A DNA stretch of 64,000 nucleotides from a virus. Its lineage: Duplodnaviria; Caudoviricetes. The notes beneath the pieces were generated by a model, which was not told the DNA's origin, ran no database searches, and saw nothing but the letters and a program-made list of their open reading frames with translations. Where the stretch lies: IMG/VR virus record IMGVR_UViG_3300046318_000318; one strand, given 5' to 3'. The translations under genes and the position numbers were made by a program. Shown here piece after piece: positions 2,841-29,204 of this stretch (within the stretch, counting starts at the first letter, position 1; each line of letters begins with the position of its first letter).

Positions 2841-3185
2841 CATAACTACCTCACTCTAGCTTTAACTAAGTTCGCTAAACTTATTGATCTTGCTTAAGGA
2901 TCCTGATACTTTCATATCAGATTAGACTATATCTTCATCTTTCGATGCTCTTCGTTTCCACTCGCTTGAGTGTACTCCCATGTGGGATAGTCGTTGACCA
3001 CACTCCATGTAAGTATATATGTCTATACTTAGTTAGGAGCTTCGGTGCGGATTGCCCAATCCTTGTATCTTTTACCATACCCAGATAGTTACTCTGGCCA
3101 CTGCATATATTTCTATCGCAGTTTGGTGCACAAGGCTCTAAGGAGTTTCCCGCAATTAGAAGAGTTTAAACGACGGCAACACTCT
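2841..3185 (-). ncRNA. group I intron 2 (ORF-less, 345 nt) in the RNAP gene
   Basis: P AATTGCGGGAAA, Q AATCCGCA, R GTCAACGACTA, S AAGATATAGTC; P1 GACGGU/GCCGUC with U.G at the splice site; P10 AGAGUGUU/GACGCUCU; ends in G. Confidence 0.92.
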
Positions 3186-3206
3186 ACCGTCAAAATCAGC
3201 ATTTGG
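3186..3206 (-). CDS. nvRNAP beta-prime subunit, 21-nt micro-exon 2 (PNADFDG)
   Basis: CCA AAT GCT GAT TTT GAC GGT between two intron cores; restores HILTVRAPNADFDGD, same spacing as bacterial HPLVCAAYNADFDGD. Confidence 0.9.
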
Positions 3207-5197
3207 CTTATTGTCCAGTAAAGTCGCTCAGCTTCACAGCTTACCCTCTTTACCCGGTGCGCTTACACACCCACCTGTACTTTCATACAGGAACAGATCA
3301 TATCTTCATCCTTATTAAAGGATGCTCTCCGCTTCTTCCCTGCTTAGGGCTTTACTCGGTCGCAACTCCGATGATCGTTGAACTTTACGCATGGTTGATA
3401 AGAATCAACTTTAGCGTCTTAGCTGCTGATTACCCAATTCTTATATTTTTCAAACTATCACGCTCATCGTTTCCGATCACGTTGTAGTATATAAGACTCT
3501 AAAGGACTTCCCAGCAATTCAAAGAGATAACTTAGTCAATTACTCAACTAAGTGCCTTATCTCATCATTATTAAAATACAATGTCAATCGCCACACACCG
3601 CCTATCAATGCTTTTCTTCTAGCTATTGTAGGGATATATTGTCTAGCATACCCAAATTGCTGACTAATATCTATAGGACTTGTTATAATCCTAGTTTCGC
3701 CAGTTTCAACGTTTTCGATAAAATATCCGTTACCCCTAAAAGATCTTTTATCGAGACATAATTGTTTAAAGTACCTCAGCTCCTTATCGGTAAGATCTTT
3801 AAACTGTCCGTTGAAACTAAATTGCCAACCTTTAATCGGAATGTTCTTTAATCTTTTATTTTTAATAGATAGTTGAACACCCCATGAAACACCAGTTATT
3901 TTCTCACAAGCTGCCAGCGATTCAAATTTACGTTCTTTGCGTGTGAATATATTTCTAGCAGTAACTGGTATTTTTATTTGTAAATCTTCTAAGGATGGTT
4001 TTTCCTGAGGCCATGGTCTTGCATCTAATTTTCGTTTGAAACATAATCCGTCTGAATAGATTTTAATATCGGAAGATCTAAGTCTGACGGACACGGTTAG
4101 TTCAGAATATCCAAGTTTCAGAGAGCAATCCCTAGCACTTTTATATTCAGTCACCTCATCCGTGATTATGTTTTTAACAAGTATTGCTGAACCATACCTG
4201 AATTGATCGTACTCATTTTCTAAATTTTCATAATTTTTCCATTCTTTTAATTCAGATAGCCATTGAAACTGCATGTAATTTTCCCAAAGTTTACAACCGG
4301 GTTTTGTTTTTAACCGATGGTAAAGTAAATCATTACTCAAGCCTAATGCAATTGCGCATTGCGTCGGGTTATCATAAATAGTGATTTCATTGGTTTTAAC
4401 ATTTCTAGTTATGACGTCTATGGTATACTTTTTCTCATTTTCAAGAATTCTATTTACTTTTTCATCAGATCTATCACAATTCGAATAAATGACATTTCCT
4501 CTAGGTGTCACCCATTCTAAATTATCTAAGGTGTCAAAGCCAGGTATCTCATTTTTATGATTTACGTACAGCGATTCAACGTTTCTAGGATAATCTAGCC
4601 ATGCTAAGCACATAGCTCTGTGTCTGAAAAATTTGTAAGATGTATTCTCATTAAGGGAAACATCAGGAATACCTGAATAGGAATGGTAACCATCTCTATC
4701 ACAAAAAGCTTTTTTATCCACACCAGTTATCAAATTTCTAACTTTTCCTTCCTTTGTTATACCATATCTTGTAAAACCAGGAATATAAGCATGATCTTTG
4801 TGTACTGGATGTGATAAACCAACTGGAAATTTCCAAATCAAGTTGCTAGGATGAGAGTTATTAAAATCACCGTCCTCGAACATCAAGTGTAATAAATGCA
4901 CTTGACTTTCATGAACGTGAACGGGCTTAAAAGCCGAAGCTATGATAAACTCTATTGGATATAGACCAGGACCTCTTATCCAATCTAAGAAAATCAAAGT
5001 GCTTCCTGTTTCAGTTGAGATACACTCAATCTGAATGTTCTCTCGCGATATGACATCACCTTCTGAGTTAACAGAATAACGACCGTCAGACCAGGGTAGC
5101 GAAAGATAGTTTTGGGTTTGTAAATATTTACTAAGCATATATCCTTTCTATATAGAAAGGTATGCTAAACGGCGATTGACAATAATGATAAGAATTA
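3207..5197 (-). mobile_element. group I intron 1 (1991 nt) carrying an HNH homing endonuclease
   Basis: After the ORF: P AATTGCTGGGAA, Q AATCAGCAG, R GTTCAACGATCA, S AAGATATGATC (P7 GAUCA/UGAUC); exon ends in U (GCT); intron ends in G. Confidence 0.9.
3540..5138 (-). CDS. intron-encoded HNH homing endonuclease with C-terminal DNA-binding repeats
   Basis: VNHKNEIPGFDTLDNLEWVT HNH motif, degenerate first copy DGDFNNSHPSNLIW, repeats such as YKSARDCSLKLG and FESLAACEKITG. Confidence 0.88.
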   Translation of the reverse strand: MLSKYLQTQNYLSLPWSDGRYSVNSEGDVISRENIQIECISTETGSTLIFLDWIRGPGLYPIEFIIASAFKPVHVHESQVHLLHLMFEDGDFNNSHPSNLIWKFPVGLSHPVHKDHAYIPGFTRYGITKEGKVRNLITGVDKKAFCDRDGYHSYSGIPDVSLNENTSYKFFRHRAMCLAWLDYPRNVESLYVNHKNEIPGFDTLDNLEWVTPRGNVIYSNCDRSDEKVNRILENEKKYTIDVITRNVKTNEITIYDNPTQCAIALGLSNDLLYHRLKTKPGCKLWENYMQFQWLSELKEWKNYENLENEYDQFRYGSAILVKNIITDEVTEYKSARDCSLKLGYSELTVSVRLRSSDIKIYSDGLCFKRKLDARPWPQEKPSLEDLQIKIPVTARNIFTRKERKFESLAACEKITGVSWGVQLSIKNKRLKNIPIKGWQFSFNGQFKDLTDKELRYFKQLCLDKRSFRGNGYFIENVETGETRIITSPIDISQQFGYARQYIPTIARRKALIGGVWRLTLYFNNDEIRHLVE

Positions 5198-6439
5198 AGC
5201 GCGCACTGTTAAAATGTGCATTCCAATAGTGAGGTCATTTGGGTTCTTTTTGAACTTAGTAATCTTCACTCGTTGAGCCGACCCCTGCAAAAGGCTCGGA
5301 TTTCTTTGGAGACATACATACAAACCTTTATCAGGCGCTTCGTCTATCAGCTCCTGCATAAACCTTTCTAACAAGGGGTGGTGTTTGTTAGTATGTTTGT
5401 ATAGGAAACCAATAGAGTCATTCAGACCCATGCCGTAACGCCGCAGCTTATTCAACATGTGGATACGGTAAGCTGTGGTGGCCATACACCAAGGAGCTTC
5501 TATTTCATCATACTCTTTACCCGCTGTAATAGAGATGATAACTGCTCGGAATGAGAAGTTGGTTCTGGCTCCGAACATGTGTTTCCTGAAGTGACCGTGC
5601 TTATGAGCCATCAACAACAGGGTGTCGTTGTAGAAATCACAAAGCATGATCAAGGACTTAACTGTTCGGTTTTGCTTGGTCTTACTTGTCTGATCGTAAA
5701 AGTCTCTGTCAATAGACACCATCGTGTTGACAGCATTCACAGCCTTCATAATGGAAGGATCTGTGTATGTGCCTAGCGGTTGTGTATCAAAGATCAGGAC
5801 TATCTTGTTCGGCAAAGGCAGATACTCACTGAAAATTATCTTACGATAGTCTTTTAGCAAGGATTGAAGATAGTCTATCCTCTCACTCTTAAGCTCGAAC
5901 TTCTGAGTCTTAGGTGCAAACTCAGTCATGGAGAAGAGAGTATCCATGATGTAATCGAAATTAGTCACAAAGTAATTGTAACCGCGCTCGATATTGCACG
6001 TCATCAGTTTGGTCAGCACTTTGTCAGGTGTTTTAGCTGCTGTCGTATAGCTTGTGTTACAAAGCCATTCGATCACAGAGAACCCTGATTTGGTAAACCT
6101 CTTGATGAGCATCATGAAAACCACAGGAGAAATAAGCTTCTCTACCCCTACTGGTTGTTTGAGCCAGATGACTGGTTCGATATCTGACACAACTGAAGCT
6201 TTAACTTCAGTGTGACAGACTGGACAGATAGTACTCTTAGAATATTCACCTTTGGTATGTCCACATTGACAACTGGGAATCAGACTGATCTGATCACTAG
6301 AGAGATGTGTGGTAAGTTTCTCTTTGACAGCCTCACGTTCTTCAAGCGTAGAACACGCCATGTGGTTGATGAGGGTGGGGGTATGACGTAATGTATAAAA
6401 CATCTCGTCGTAGTTAACCAGTTCTTGGATAACAGGCAT
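5198..6439 (-). CDS. non-virion RNA polymerase beta-prime N-terminal subunit (phiKZ gp55-like), exon 1; spliced product 476 aa
   Basis: Zn finger CQCG...CPVC, FGARTNFSFRAVI, LQRNPSL, RVKITKFK; lies next to chimallin as in phiKZ. Confidence 0.9.
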
Positions 6440-6488
6440 GAGTTTCCTTTATGGTTGGTTGATGATACATTCAGACAGCGGTCACATA

Positions 6489-6497
6489 AAGTATATG
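6489..6497 (-). promoter_or_regulatory. candidate phage promoter core CATATACTT
   Basis: Same core upstream of chimallin (8563-8571) and in the longer repeats at 37136 and 47117; TATATACTT variant at 10965. Confidence 0.45.
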
Positions 6498-6523
6498 GTA
6501 TTAGTAAAATTAACAAACAGGAC

Positions 6524-6559
6524 AAAAAAAGATACACCAGCCGAAGCTGGTGTATCTTT
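6524..6559. terminator. intrinsic terminator with UUCG loop on the minus strand
   Basis: AAAGATACACCAGC-CGAA-GCTGGTGTATCTTT. Confidence 0.85.
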
Positions 6560-6583
6560 ATGTCAGATCCGTATCTCTACAGA

Positions 6584-8452
6584 TCAGTAGCGGTAACCAC
6601 CCATGTTGATGTAGTTCTGCATATGCTGAGGAGCCATGCCGAAACCCATGAACGATTGAGTAGGTGCCAGCAGACCAGCGTTGGCGAAACTTGCAACACC
6701 GCGTTGGTTGTTGAAGTCTGCACCAGACATTGGGCTGTTGATACGCACCATCAGGTTGCAAGCCTGAATACCCTTACGCAGAGCGTCCAGGAACGTAGCG
6801 CTGAAGGTCACTCGTTGAGCATAGCCTGTAAACACAGCGGACTCATTGGACATGCTGGAGATCATACGCTTGCGATCGGAGAGACGCTCTGCCAACGAGA
6901 TGTTGGTGTTCAGGTACGTTTCGGTGAACTGACGCAATGCATGCACATTGTTGGCACCAAGGATGTTGGCAGCTGCCAAGTAGTCGATGTCACGGATGTC
7001 ACGCTGAGCACCGTTGCGATCGGTGTAGTAACCCAGATGGACACGGTTACCCACATCCACGAACATCTGTGCGTTGTTCGGGAAATAGCGACCGAAGTTG
7101 CCAGCAGTCAGTTCCTGAGCAGCTTTGTACATGATGTCGTAAGCACCACCACCGCTTGCAGCAGCTGCACTGTACAGACCAGTATACCATGCCTGAGGAC
7201 CAGCTTCTGGGCAGTCAACAGCAACCATCAGACCAGGCTGAACCAGAGTGTTCAAGAACTGACCCAAGTTCTCAGTCGTAAAACTGGAAGACTTGGTGTC
7301 GAGGATGTTGCTGATACCAGTGGGTTGATTGTCAAAGTTGCCTTCGATGTTCAACGCACCTGCATCACGCAGATCCAAATCCTTAGTCATCTGGGGTCGG
7401 AAGATCTGGTAGTAGTTGTTGTTCAACGCCAGAGCATCCATGTTCGCCACTGCCAACAGCATGTTAGCTGGAGTGTATGCGTGAGCACTGGACAGAGTGG
7501 TGATCACAGCACGAGCTGCAAACTTCTGTGGCAAACGCTGTTGTGCAGGCATGTAGGGGTTGACCATGGGTTCACGAGGAGCCCAGAGCATTTCTACAAA
7601 GCCGCCAACTTCACTGATGCGAGTCTCACGACCGCCGCTGTTCAGACTGCGGTTCTGATTTTGGTTCTGATTGTTCTGAGCTGCAAAGCTCAGTTGGAAG
7701 TCAGAACGAATCAAGTTACCGACATCGTCAGCCACAGGTGTCGAACCAAAGGTCATGTTGATGACCAATTGTTGACCCGTAGGGATCTGCGACAGGTTCA
7801 GATCCTGGAACGTAGGAACCAGTTGAGACAACTCAGTACCGTTAGCCAAGCCAGCGTTCAGTGCCAGCTTATACACAGCAGCTTTGTCCTTCGTATTGAA
7901 AGTAGCTGGTACGACAGTGGCGTCGGTGAACCGCAGTTCGTGCTGAGGAAACGCACGACCAACAGCCGCCTTGGCTTTTGCAATCAAGATGTCGTCGAGA
8001 GCATCGCCCGCTACCCGATACAACTCGATTTGCTTTTGGTGGTGGTACTGCACCACAGGAGTGGGTTTGTCACCAGTTGCTTCGAGGATCAGCACATGGA
8101 ATGCTACCTTGTTAGGTACATCCTTCAGACGCATCGCCACGACCAGGCAAGAGAATGCCAGAGCCGTTTCGTTCTGGTTGTCCAGATCCAGAATGCTGAT
8201 CAGACTGTCAGAACTTGCGTTCTTGTAGATCTCAATAAGTGCGGTCTTGAGGTCGTTGTAAGCCTCAGACCCAATTGAGCGACCGATAGGGGCACCGAAG
8301 ATGTTACCGCCGGAACCGAAGTTCCAAGAAGATTTCACAGGTGCTTGTTGGGTAGCAGTAGCTGCTTGACCAGGAGAACCGGCTTGGGTGAAAGCGGTTG
8401 CTTCAGCAGAGGTTGCAGAAGCGGAAGAGTTGTTACCAGTATTGAGAGCCAT
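6584..8452 (-). CDS. chmA: chimallin, major phage nuclear shell protein (phiKZ gp54-like)
   Basis: 622 aa, low-complexity N-terminus then FGAPIGRSIGSE; host-like optimised codons; syntenic with the nvRNAP subunit. Confidence 0.85.
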   Translation of the reverse strand: MALNTGNNSSASATSAEATAFTQAGSPGQAATATQQAPVKSSWNFGSGGNIFGAPIGRSIGSEAYNDLKTALIEIYKNASSDSLISILDLDNQNETALAFSCLVVAMRLKDVPNKVAFHVLILEATGDKPTPVVQYHHQKQIELYRVAGDALDDILIAKAKAAVGRAFPQHELRFTDATVVPATFNTKDKAAVYKLALNAGLANGTELSQLVPTFQDLNLSQIPTGQQLVINMTFGSTPVADDVGNLIRSDFQLSFAAQNNQNQNQNRSLNSGGRETRISEVGGFVEMLWAPREPMVNPYMPAQQRLPQKFAARAVITTLSSAHAYTPANMLLAVANMDALALNNNYYQIFRPQMTKDLDLRDAGALNIEGNFDNQPTGISNILDTKSSSFTTENLGQFLNTLVQPGLMVAVDCPEAGPQAWYTGLYSAAAASGGGAYDIMYKAAQELTAGNFGRYFPNNAQMFVDVGNRVHLGYYTDRNGAQRDIRDIDYLAAANILGANNVHALRQFTETYLNTNISLAERLSDRKRMISSMSNESAVFTGYAQRVTFSATFLDALRKGIQACNLMVRINSPMSGADFNNQRGVASFANAGLLAPTQSFMGFGMAPQHMQNYINMGGYRY

Positions 8453-28181: not shown

Positions 28182-28374
28182 GATTTTGTTCCTTAGTTGG
28201 AAGTTGGTGATTGTGAGGGTTGAAGATGATGCCGTCGGTACGTTTAAGCCAGGCTACAGCAACATAGTTGACTTGAGGATAACCCCTTTGTGTGATGCCT
28301 GTAATAGTACCAGGTCCTACAGGACTATCTTCTATGGTATCGCCTATCTCAAGATATTCAGGGTTCATAGTCAC
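28159..28374 (-). CDS. hypothetical protein
   Basis: 71 aa, coupled. Confidence 0.6.
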   Translation of the reverse strand: MTMNPEYLEIGDTIEDSPVGPGTITGITQRGYPQVNYVAVAWLKRTDGIIFNPHNHQLPTKEQNHECSNST

Positions 28375-29204
28375 ACTACTTTCATGACACGTTGAAAAAT
28401 GTAAAACTTTCTATCTGGAAACTTAATGCCCAAACGTTGAGCCTCAGTAAAAGCTTTCTTATATGTCAGATGAGTTGAGGGTTTTTCAGAAAATTGATAA
28501 CCGTTAAAATCTTCTGTTTTTTCTTTCAGCTTACTGGATATGACAAATATTCGTTTTCTTTTAAGACTGTTGGTATGGTCAAGAACCATATCTACTGTTT
28601 TACAGAAATTTAAATAGTGCTCATTAAGCTTGGTATTTTTGTAGTGTGTTCCAGTTTCGTTAAGCTGGATACCGTTTTCATCTAATAGATGCTGAAGGTT
28701 ATTTTCAGCGTAGATGCTAAACATCTGTTGTTTAGTACCGGGCATGATACTTTCCTTTTTTGACGAAGTTTGATTTTTACATTCTTTTTCTGGCAGATGT
28801 ACACCATTTATGTACCAGTATTTTTCACCGCTGCGATTTTCGATAGCAGGTCCATCAATACGGTGAAGCATGCCGTGTCGATACCATAATTTATTACCAT
28901 CTATGCGCTCAACAGCTGATCCGTCTTCCCGATGACGCTCACCGTTCAGCCACCATTCACTATGACCATTCCGGCGATCGATAGCAGGACCATCTATTCG
29001 ATGACGCTTCCCGTTCAGCCACCATTCTCTATCGCCGTTAGCGTACTCAACAGCAGGATCATCTAGACGATGTAGTATGTTGTCCAGATACCAAGCTTTA
29101 TACCCATCCAAACGCTCAACGGTTGGACCATCTTCACGATGAAGCTTATCGTCTTTATACCAAACTACACTTCCATTTTCTTTTATGACTTTTCCATTTA
29201 ACAT
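28371..29204 (-). CDS. protein with N-terminal HRxDGPA repeats fused to an unrelated C-terminus
   Basis: Tandem ~23-aa WY...LHRxDGPAVE repeats. Confidence 0.8.
   Translation of the reverse strand: MLNGKVIKENGSVVWYKDDKLHREDGPTVERLDGYKAWYLDNILHRLDDPAVEYANGDREWWLNGKRHRIDGPAIDRRNGHSEWWLNGERHREDGSAVERIDGNKLWYRHGMLHRIDGPAIENRSGEKYWYINGVHLPEKECKNQTSSKKESIMPGTKQQMFSIYAENNLQHLLDENGIQLNETGTHYKNTKLNEHYLNFCKTVDMVLDHTNSLKRKRIFVISSKLKEKTEDFNGYQFSEKPSTHLTYKKAFTEAQRLGIKFPDRKFYIFQRVMKVV

Follow-up and report, generated by a model that had tools for sequence, protein, structure and literature searches.

Mobile group I introns of the kind considered here are common in nucleus-forming jumbo phages, and their characteristic layout, with a homing endonuclease ORF in loop L1 ahead of the ribozyme core, is already present in phiKZ and PhiPA3. 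In phiKZ, the HNH gene gp56 separates gp55 from gp56.1, and the spliced gp55-gp56.1 product has been reported as a subunit of the non-virion RNA polymerase (nvRNAP) (10.64898/2026.09.21.753271); splicing of the phiKZ HNH introns was not seen in one long-read study. PhiPA3 gp210 is a demonstrated nickase, and the only one of these nucleases for which a benefit in phage competition has been demonstrated; an earlier note on the DNA analysed here had cited it as an nvRNAP-gene precedent, but it resides in the virion RNA polymerase β gene (the gp178 homologue; PMC11620839). The endonuclease ORFs of the Synechocystis PCC 6803 tRNA-fMet intron and of Physarum I-PpoI are likewise inserted in P1, the former overlapping P1/P2 by 61 nt (PMC3073962, Table 1). 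These ORFs encode nucleases of the PD-(D/E)XK or His-Cys type within genes for tRNA or rRNA, whereas the element described below encodes an HNH protein in a phage mRNA. An ORF in P1 with P1/P2 overlap is thus already in print, as are the "core creep" hypothesis, which predicts variable extension of ORFs into intron structure, and the disturbance of splicing by translation of an overlapping ORF, the case of a P1-located ORF included (PMC3073962).

The element lies in a 64,000-nt stretch of viral DNA from IMG/VR (hereafter: the window), whose source is a nucleus-forming jumbo phage: a chimallin gene (6584-8452; profile match to PF25677) is the upstream neighbour of a gene for the N-terminal β' subunit of the nvRNAP (phiKZ gp55-like; exon 1 at 5198-6439, phrog_2987, E = 1e-115). 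The polymerase gene and its introns are read from the minus strand. Its best polymerase relative among named phages is 41% identical, and fragments of intron cores were the sole BLASTN matches to these phages. Joining 6439-5198, 3206-3186 and 2840-2673 yields a 476-aa protein in which A-P-N-A-D-F-D-G-D is restored; by this reconstruction of the reading frame, exon 2 (3186-3206) has 21 nt and codes for P-N-A-D-F-D-G, and exon 3 (2673-2840) starts with the last catalytic Asp and takes the frame to its stop codon. Two group I introns account for the rest. Intron 2 (2841-3185; 345 nt; RF00028, 83.7 bits) is without an ORF. Intron 1 (3207-5197; 1,991 nt), inserted immediately 5' of the NADFDGD motif, opens with an in-frame UAA and closes with a G (G3207), boundaries set by the reading frame and by relatives with introns at the same site; its core (3584-3274) scores 68.7 bits against RF00028, for which the family threshold is 50 (Rfam). 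The region from P3 to P9 (3207-3521), with a P7.1/P7.2-type insertion, is IA2-like by inspection, and inspection of intron 1 turned up no clear candidate for a classical P10, in which the 3' exon would pair with the guide. Not every group I intron has a P10. The P7 strands (3374-3290) read GAUCA/UGAUC, which departs from the usual GACUA/UAGUC by a double compensatory change and retains the G-binding pair.

The HNH gene (532 aa, 3540-5138) precedes the core, as the earlier note had proposed, with the 5' splice site (5198|5197) on one side of it and P2 and the RF00028 core on the other. The 5' strand of the splice-site helix, GCU|U (5200-5197), can pair with an internal guide, A-GGC (3557-3554), which directly precedes P2: G5200-C3554, C5199-G3555, U5198·G3556 at the splice site, and U5197-A3557, followed by a small internal loop. 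That this guide is coding sequence was correctly noted before; its placement in a terminal N-D-E-I-R was not, for the G-G-C falls in codons 528-529 (R528-H529, then H-L-V-E). Beyond the internal loop, a non-coding arm of the leader (5193-5162) is complementary to stretches of the last 37 HNH codons (within 3560-3649). The first segment of this long-range "zipper", 5193-5182 with 3560-3571, counts 12 contiguous pairs rather than the 11 given earlier, and two further segments had been missed: 5181-5171 with 3582-3592 (11 bp) and 5170-5162 with 3641-3649 (9 bp). Folding of the whole 2-kb precursor predicts all three (12 + 11 + 9 bp), with pair probabilities mostly of 0.9-1.0, and next to them P2 (3530-3553), a 10-bp hairpin whose GUAA loop holds the HNH stop codon and in which a compensatory G-C to A-U change is seen in the relative L004. 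The 3-bp splice-site helix reaches a probability of only ~0.44 in this model, which considers secondary structure alone, and its register rests on comparison. The zipper duplex (36 nt around the splice site with 3593-3553) is worth -35.5 kcal/mol; the best alternative site in the ORF offers -20.3, and none of 150 shuffles of the arms matched the observed energy (mean -22.1, sd 2.5).

What, then, does comparison say? L004 carries an ORF-less intron at the same site, its core identical to that of intron 1 at 310/314 positions (98.7%) and its P1-P2 more diverged; that P1 is built alike, GCU/GGU and U-A being followed by an internal loop and a short stem, and is closed by a 4-nt loop. L002 has another ORF-less intron at this site, with a local P1 of 7 bp. 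The same-site introns number nine, among them a near-identical allele and two that form a close pair; in each the guide stands directly or two bases before P2, over the nine the +1 pair covaries (U-A, A-U, U·G, C-G), and eight share the U·G register at the splice site. In the ninth, L027 (~165-175 and 1810-1820), C·A apparently replaces U·G (exon GCC, guide AGC), as judged from the register; its 3' splice site falls off the contig. The same-site nucleases of other phages are ~39% identical, and every leader complements the tail of the ORF that follows it, with a zipper sequence that differs from lineage to lineage. Because an ORF-less P1 of the same shape, the guide before P2, covariation at +1 and lineage-specific complementarity between leader and ORF end all point the same way, we regard the placement of the HNH ORF in L1, with P1 closed over ~1.6 kb, as confirmed and as good as certain. 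The arrangement named in the earlier note as speaking against it, a local guide near 5150-5190 that would leave the ORF between P1 and P2, we consider scarcely credible. The stretch 5189-5177 does resemble the local P1 loop and guide of L002's ORF-less intron (12/13 nt), but the guide G is a U there and the local U·G does not form; the zipper occupies the stretch, a guide in this position would set intron 1 apart from the same-site introns, and GGC and GGU triplets are absent from 5197-5100. Considered as a remnant guide on the strength of that match, 5189-5177 cannot serve as one.

The neighbourhood of this site is crowded in the relatives: up to four group I introns fall within an exon stretch of ~125 nt (L002 6144-7664, L004 6145-7647, and L007, L010 and L013), at QRN|P, RA|P, AD|F and DG|D, with exons of 12 and 9 nt. 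L005 has a further HNH intron (5983-7060), 12 nt downstream of its first, and here too the nuclease gene (231 aa) precedes the core. One may speculate that ORF-less introns shield target sites from rival nucleases.

Is the long extension of P1 needed at all? GCU/GGC and a few closing pairs might suffice, and the complementarity might be the footprint of insertion or of a template switch (that is, correction between inverted repeats). A duplex scan finds the zipper weak, or not the best duplex, in Vibrio phage XC31, in the second intron of L005 and in phiKZ gp179, and 73 of 150 shuffles match the zipper of L013; over-stable P1 extensions could, moreover, hinder the second splicing step. Against this stands the fact that the zipper is kept, with differing sequences, across nucleases only ~39% identical and at several insertion sites; because it is, selection on the zipper appears to continue, and we judge an incidental extension very improbable.

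The overlap of the nuclease ORF with the guide and P2 is another matter. Among the same-site homologues the stop codon precedes the guide triplet by 8 nt (L005, L010), 2 nt (L007, L013) or 0 nt (L027); in the window the ORF continues through the 5' strand of P2 and ends 14 nt past the triplet, and the residues beyond the last conserved aromatic are not conserved among 15 homologues. Because five same-site homologues stop 0-8 nt before the guide, the overlap has the look of core creep and would have arisen incidentally as the stop codon drifted. From no ORF, through stops 8, 2 and 0 nt short of the guide, to one 14 nt beyond it, the series agrees with the prediction of variable extension and offers a set of natural alleles for testing it.

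Access of ribosomes to this region appears to be restricted at the other end of the gene. A predicted hairpin (5134-5166; minimum free energy -12.7 kcal/mol, z = -3.5) covers the HNH Shine-Dalgarno sequence with its inner 7 bp (5160-5154 with 5143-5149) and the AUG with its outer 6 bp. This start takes 14.0 kcal/mol to open; among 39 other starts the median is 6.7, and one alone exceeds 14.0. Start hairpins of unrelated sequence reach z of -3 or below in eight of 12 L1 introns, and the opening energy in the precursor is at least 8 kcal/mol in 12 of 13; the start of PhiPA3 gp210 is weakly structured locally (z = -0.9), and in XC31 start occlusion was not found. In phiKZ gp179 (L019) a stretch close to the ORF end is perfectly complementary, over 10 bp, to the AUG region (~1496-1505 and 2513-2522), adjoining a 10-bp Shine-Dalgarno hairpin. 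T4 td provides the parallel: like intron 1 it is IA2-like, with an in-frame stop immediately after the 5' splice site, an ORF whose end overlaps intron structure and a hairpin (predicted, in the window) that hides the ribosome-binding site. I-TevI differs in being a GIY-YIG protein encoded in L6a, overlapping P6a/P7, and in having a mapped late promoter within its hairpin, for which no counterpart was found in the window's leader. In T4, td splicing drops when the I-TevI hairpin is deleted (PMC2988022), which makes the passage of ribosomes a known cost that such elements limit. The hidden start accordingly suggests, on our analysis, a way of keeping P1 clear of ribosomes rather than a switch for splicing.

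The two devices nevertheless touch: the outer, AUG-pairing stem of the hairpin competes with the third zipper segment (5170-5162), which displaces it in the full-length fold (probability 0.98 vs 0.02), so that the cost of opening the AUG falls from 14.0 to 9.5 kcal/mol once the zipper forms. One could build on this a length-sensing switch, in which complete intron RNA alone closes the zipper and thereby frees the nuclease start, while ribosomes finishing the ORF melt P1 again, nuclease synthesis and splicing thus regulating each other. A comparable drop in opening energy is seen in the L007/L013/L027 lineage, and in every case the guide either falls inside the ORF or comes no more than about 10 nt from the stop codon, where a terminating ribosome could reach it. 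Were the switch real, the amount of nuclease would depend on intact or excised intron RNA coming out of the phage nucleus, and an internal promoter would be unnecessary. We nonetheless hold it unlikely: 1) The direction of the effect is inconsistent across 13 introns. Long-range pairing tightens the start in phiKZ gp56 (from 8 to 14 kcal/mol) and gp179 (from 8 to 17), and changes it little in most others. 2) The inner Shine-Dalgarno hairpin of intron 1 persists in the full-length fold. 3) ORF-less introns occupy the same site in L002 and L004. 4) The phage nucleus separates transcription from translation (PMC12908238); it would further shield the precursor, and splicing may be finished before ribosomes arrive. 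The proposal made in the earlier note, that ribosomes finishing the nuclease ORF would melt the guide and so couple its translation to splicing, therefore survives in its physical half, as a prediction; the coupling as stated there is not supported, the overlap not being conserved at this site and the start being sequestered. The freed AUG would, in this model of the fold, allow some translation of the nuclease from intact intron RNA.

We return, then, to zipper-assisted splicing with repressed translation of the nuclease, in a mobile group I intron whose L1 encodes an I-HmuI-like nicking endonuclease, as the probable account of intron 1; its hairpins and zipper are predictions from sequence. 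The leader, complementary to the last HNH codons, would form a zipper of ~30 bp, joining the 5' splice site to a guide 1.6 kb away beside P2, and the precursor would thereby splice like an ORF-less intron. The nuclease start being folded away, ribosomes would rarely run into zipper and guide before splicing. A little nuclease might come from a shorter transcript started internally or from the excised intron, and by nicking intron-less alleles near the R-A-P-N-A-D codons it would spread the intron. A hypothetical transcript beginning in the hairpin loop would have an open start (2-3 kcal/mol). No internal promoter was identified in the leader; TATG, the phiKZ late motif, occurs there once, overlapping the start codon, and stands at the right place for a hairpin promoter in L005 alone.

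The protein itself (phrog_59, E = 8.5e-15) was described earlier as a degenerate and an intact HNH module followed by several DNA-binding repeats, and alignment, Foldseek and AlphaFold bear this out, with DNA binding presumed. The degenerate N-terminal module (residues 1-105; 4824-5138) has Phe87 at the position of the catalytic His and a weak match to phrog_17657 at residues 58-104. The intact ββα-metal module (residues 118-220; 4479-4787) aligns N193, H194 and N215 with D74, H75 and N96 of I-HmuI, which we take to be its active-site residues (general-base His and metal ligands); among 15 homologues N193, H194 and N206 are kept and N215 nearly always. Four NUMOD1-like ββαα repeats follow (3579-4421; about residues 242-277, 319-353, 392-426 and 472-507 of an AlphaFold model with pLDDT 83.8), presumably binding DNA. 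Their match to Pfam NUMOD1 (E = 0.005) lies under the Pfam cut-off, and Pfam HNH_3 gives no score on the 532-aa protein; with the AlphaFold model as query, the sole significant Foldseek match is I-HmuI (1u3e, E = 4e-9). Against a 98% identical allele the gene shows 19 synonymous and 11 replacement changes (pN/pS ~0.15), which indicates that the nuclease is under purifying selection.

Has the element moved? A near-identical copy (~98%) is present in L025 and L026 within a different exon allele. In L025 the match to the window sets in no earlier than 14 nt ahead of the splice site, and the exon background is nearer to L002 (89/103) than to the window (83/103); L004 and the window share 72% identity over the beginning of exon 1 and 92-99% across the intron cluster. 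These patterns of identity look like the trace that recent homing with co-conversion between phage lineages would be expected to leave.

Elsewhere in the window, a group I intron (33717-33496, minus strand; RF00028, 59.7 bits) interrupts a tRNA-Leu(UAA) gene (~33744-33432) at the junction of D arm and anticodon stem, outside the anticodon loop; ARAGORN misses the interrupted gene and calls the tRNA once the intron is removed. To our knowledge this is an unusual position for a tRNA group I intron. Another (20588-20355, minus strand; 87.7 bits) directly follows the CAU anticodon of an apparent tRNA gene, which is plausible by eye when rebuilt, ARAGORN making no call. A repeated unit of ~70 nt at 28800-29200 (ORF 28371-29204) matches L002 336-704.

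How does intron 1 compare, finally, with its relatives in named phages? In PhiPA3 gp210, phiKZ gp179 and gp56, and phages XC31, HPP-Temi, Kodama and Goslar, a set biased by its selection for similarity to the window nuclease (gp56 for gene position), the ORF begins at most ~70 nt from the upstream exon and the core follows. Phage PA7 (L020 1500-2650) is the exception: a homologous HNH gene, carried by an intron of the same polymerase gene, is found 3' of the core and is closed by its own long-range stem. The phiKZ gp56 intron is in the same gene and motif as intron 1, with its core after the ORF; the ORF begins 33 nt after the inferred splice site, the arm makes ~15 pairs in 17 nt and the stop codon again sits in a GUAA loop of P2. 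It differs in its site, 6 nt downstream (PN|ADF), in lacking the second intron, the micro-exon and a local start hairpin, and in encoding a 334-aa nuclease with a single HNH module; we found no paper that draws its P1. The gp210 and gp179 nucleases are homologous (27-28% identity) and likewise encoded before the core, with the guide (GUC/GUCC) in their last codons (as also in HPP-Temi), the ORF running into P2 and the Shine-Dalgarno sequence paired; they are shorter proteins, in virion polymerase genes and at other sites. I-HmuI, from the SPO1 DNA polymerase intron, shares the fold and the aligned active-site residues, but has 174 aa and is encoded in L8, whereas the window protein adds the degenerate N-terminal module and the four repeats. 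Neither an account of a family-wide L1 zipper in phage introns nor anything specific on endonuclease genes placed in their P1/L1 was found in a literature consisting mostly of non-subscription sources, and an earlier description may exist. The window element is itself ordinary for its family. The same layout in L1, with zipper and hidden start, is recognizable in phiKZ gp56 and gp179 and in PhiPA3 gp210, that is, in genetically tractable phages, and the expression of nucleases linked to phage competition can therefore be tested directly in phiKZ and PhiPA3.
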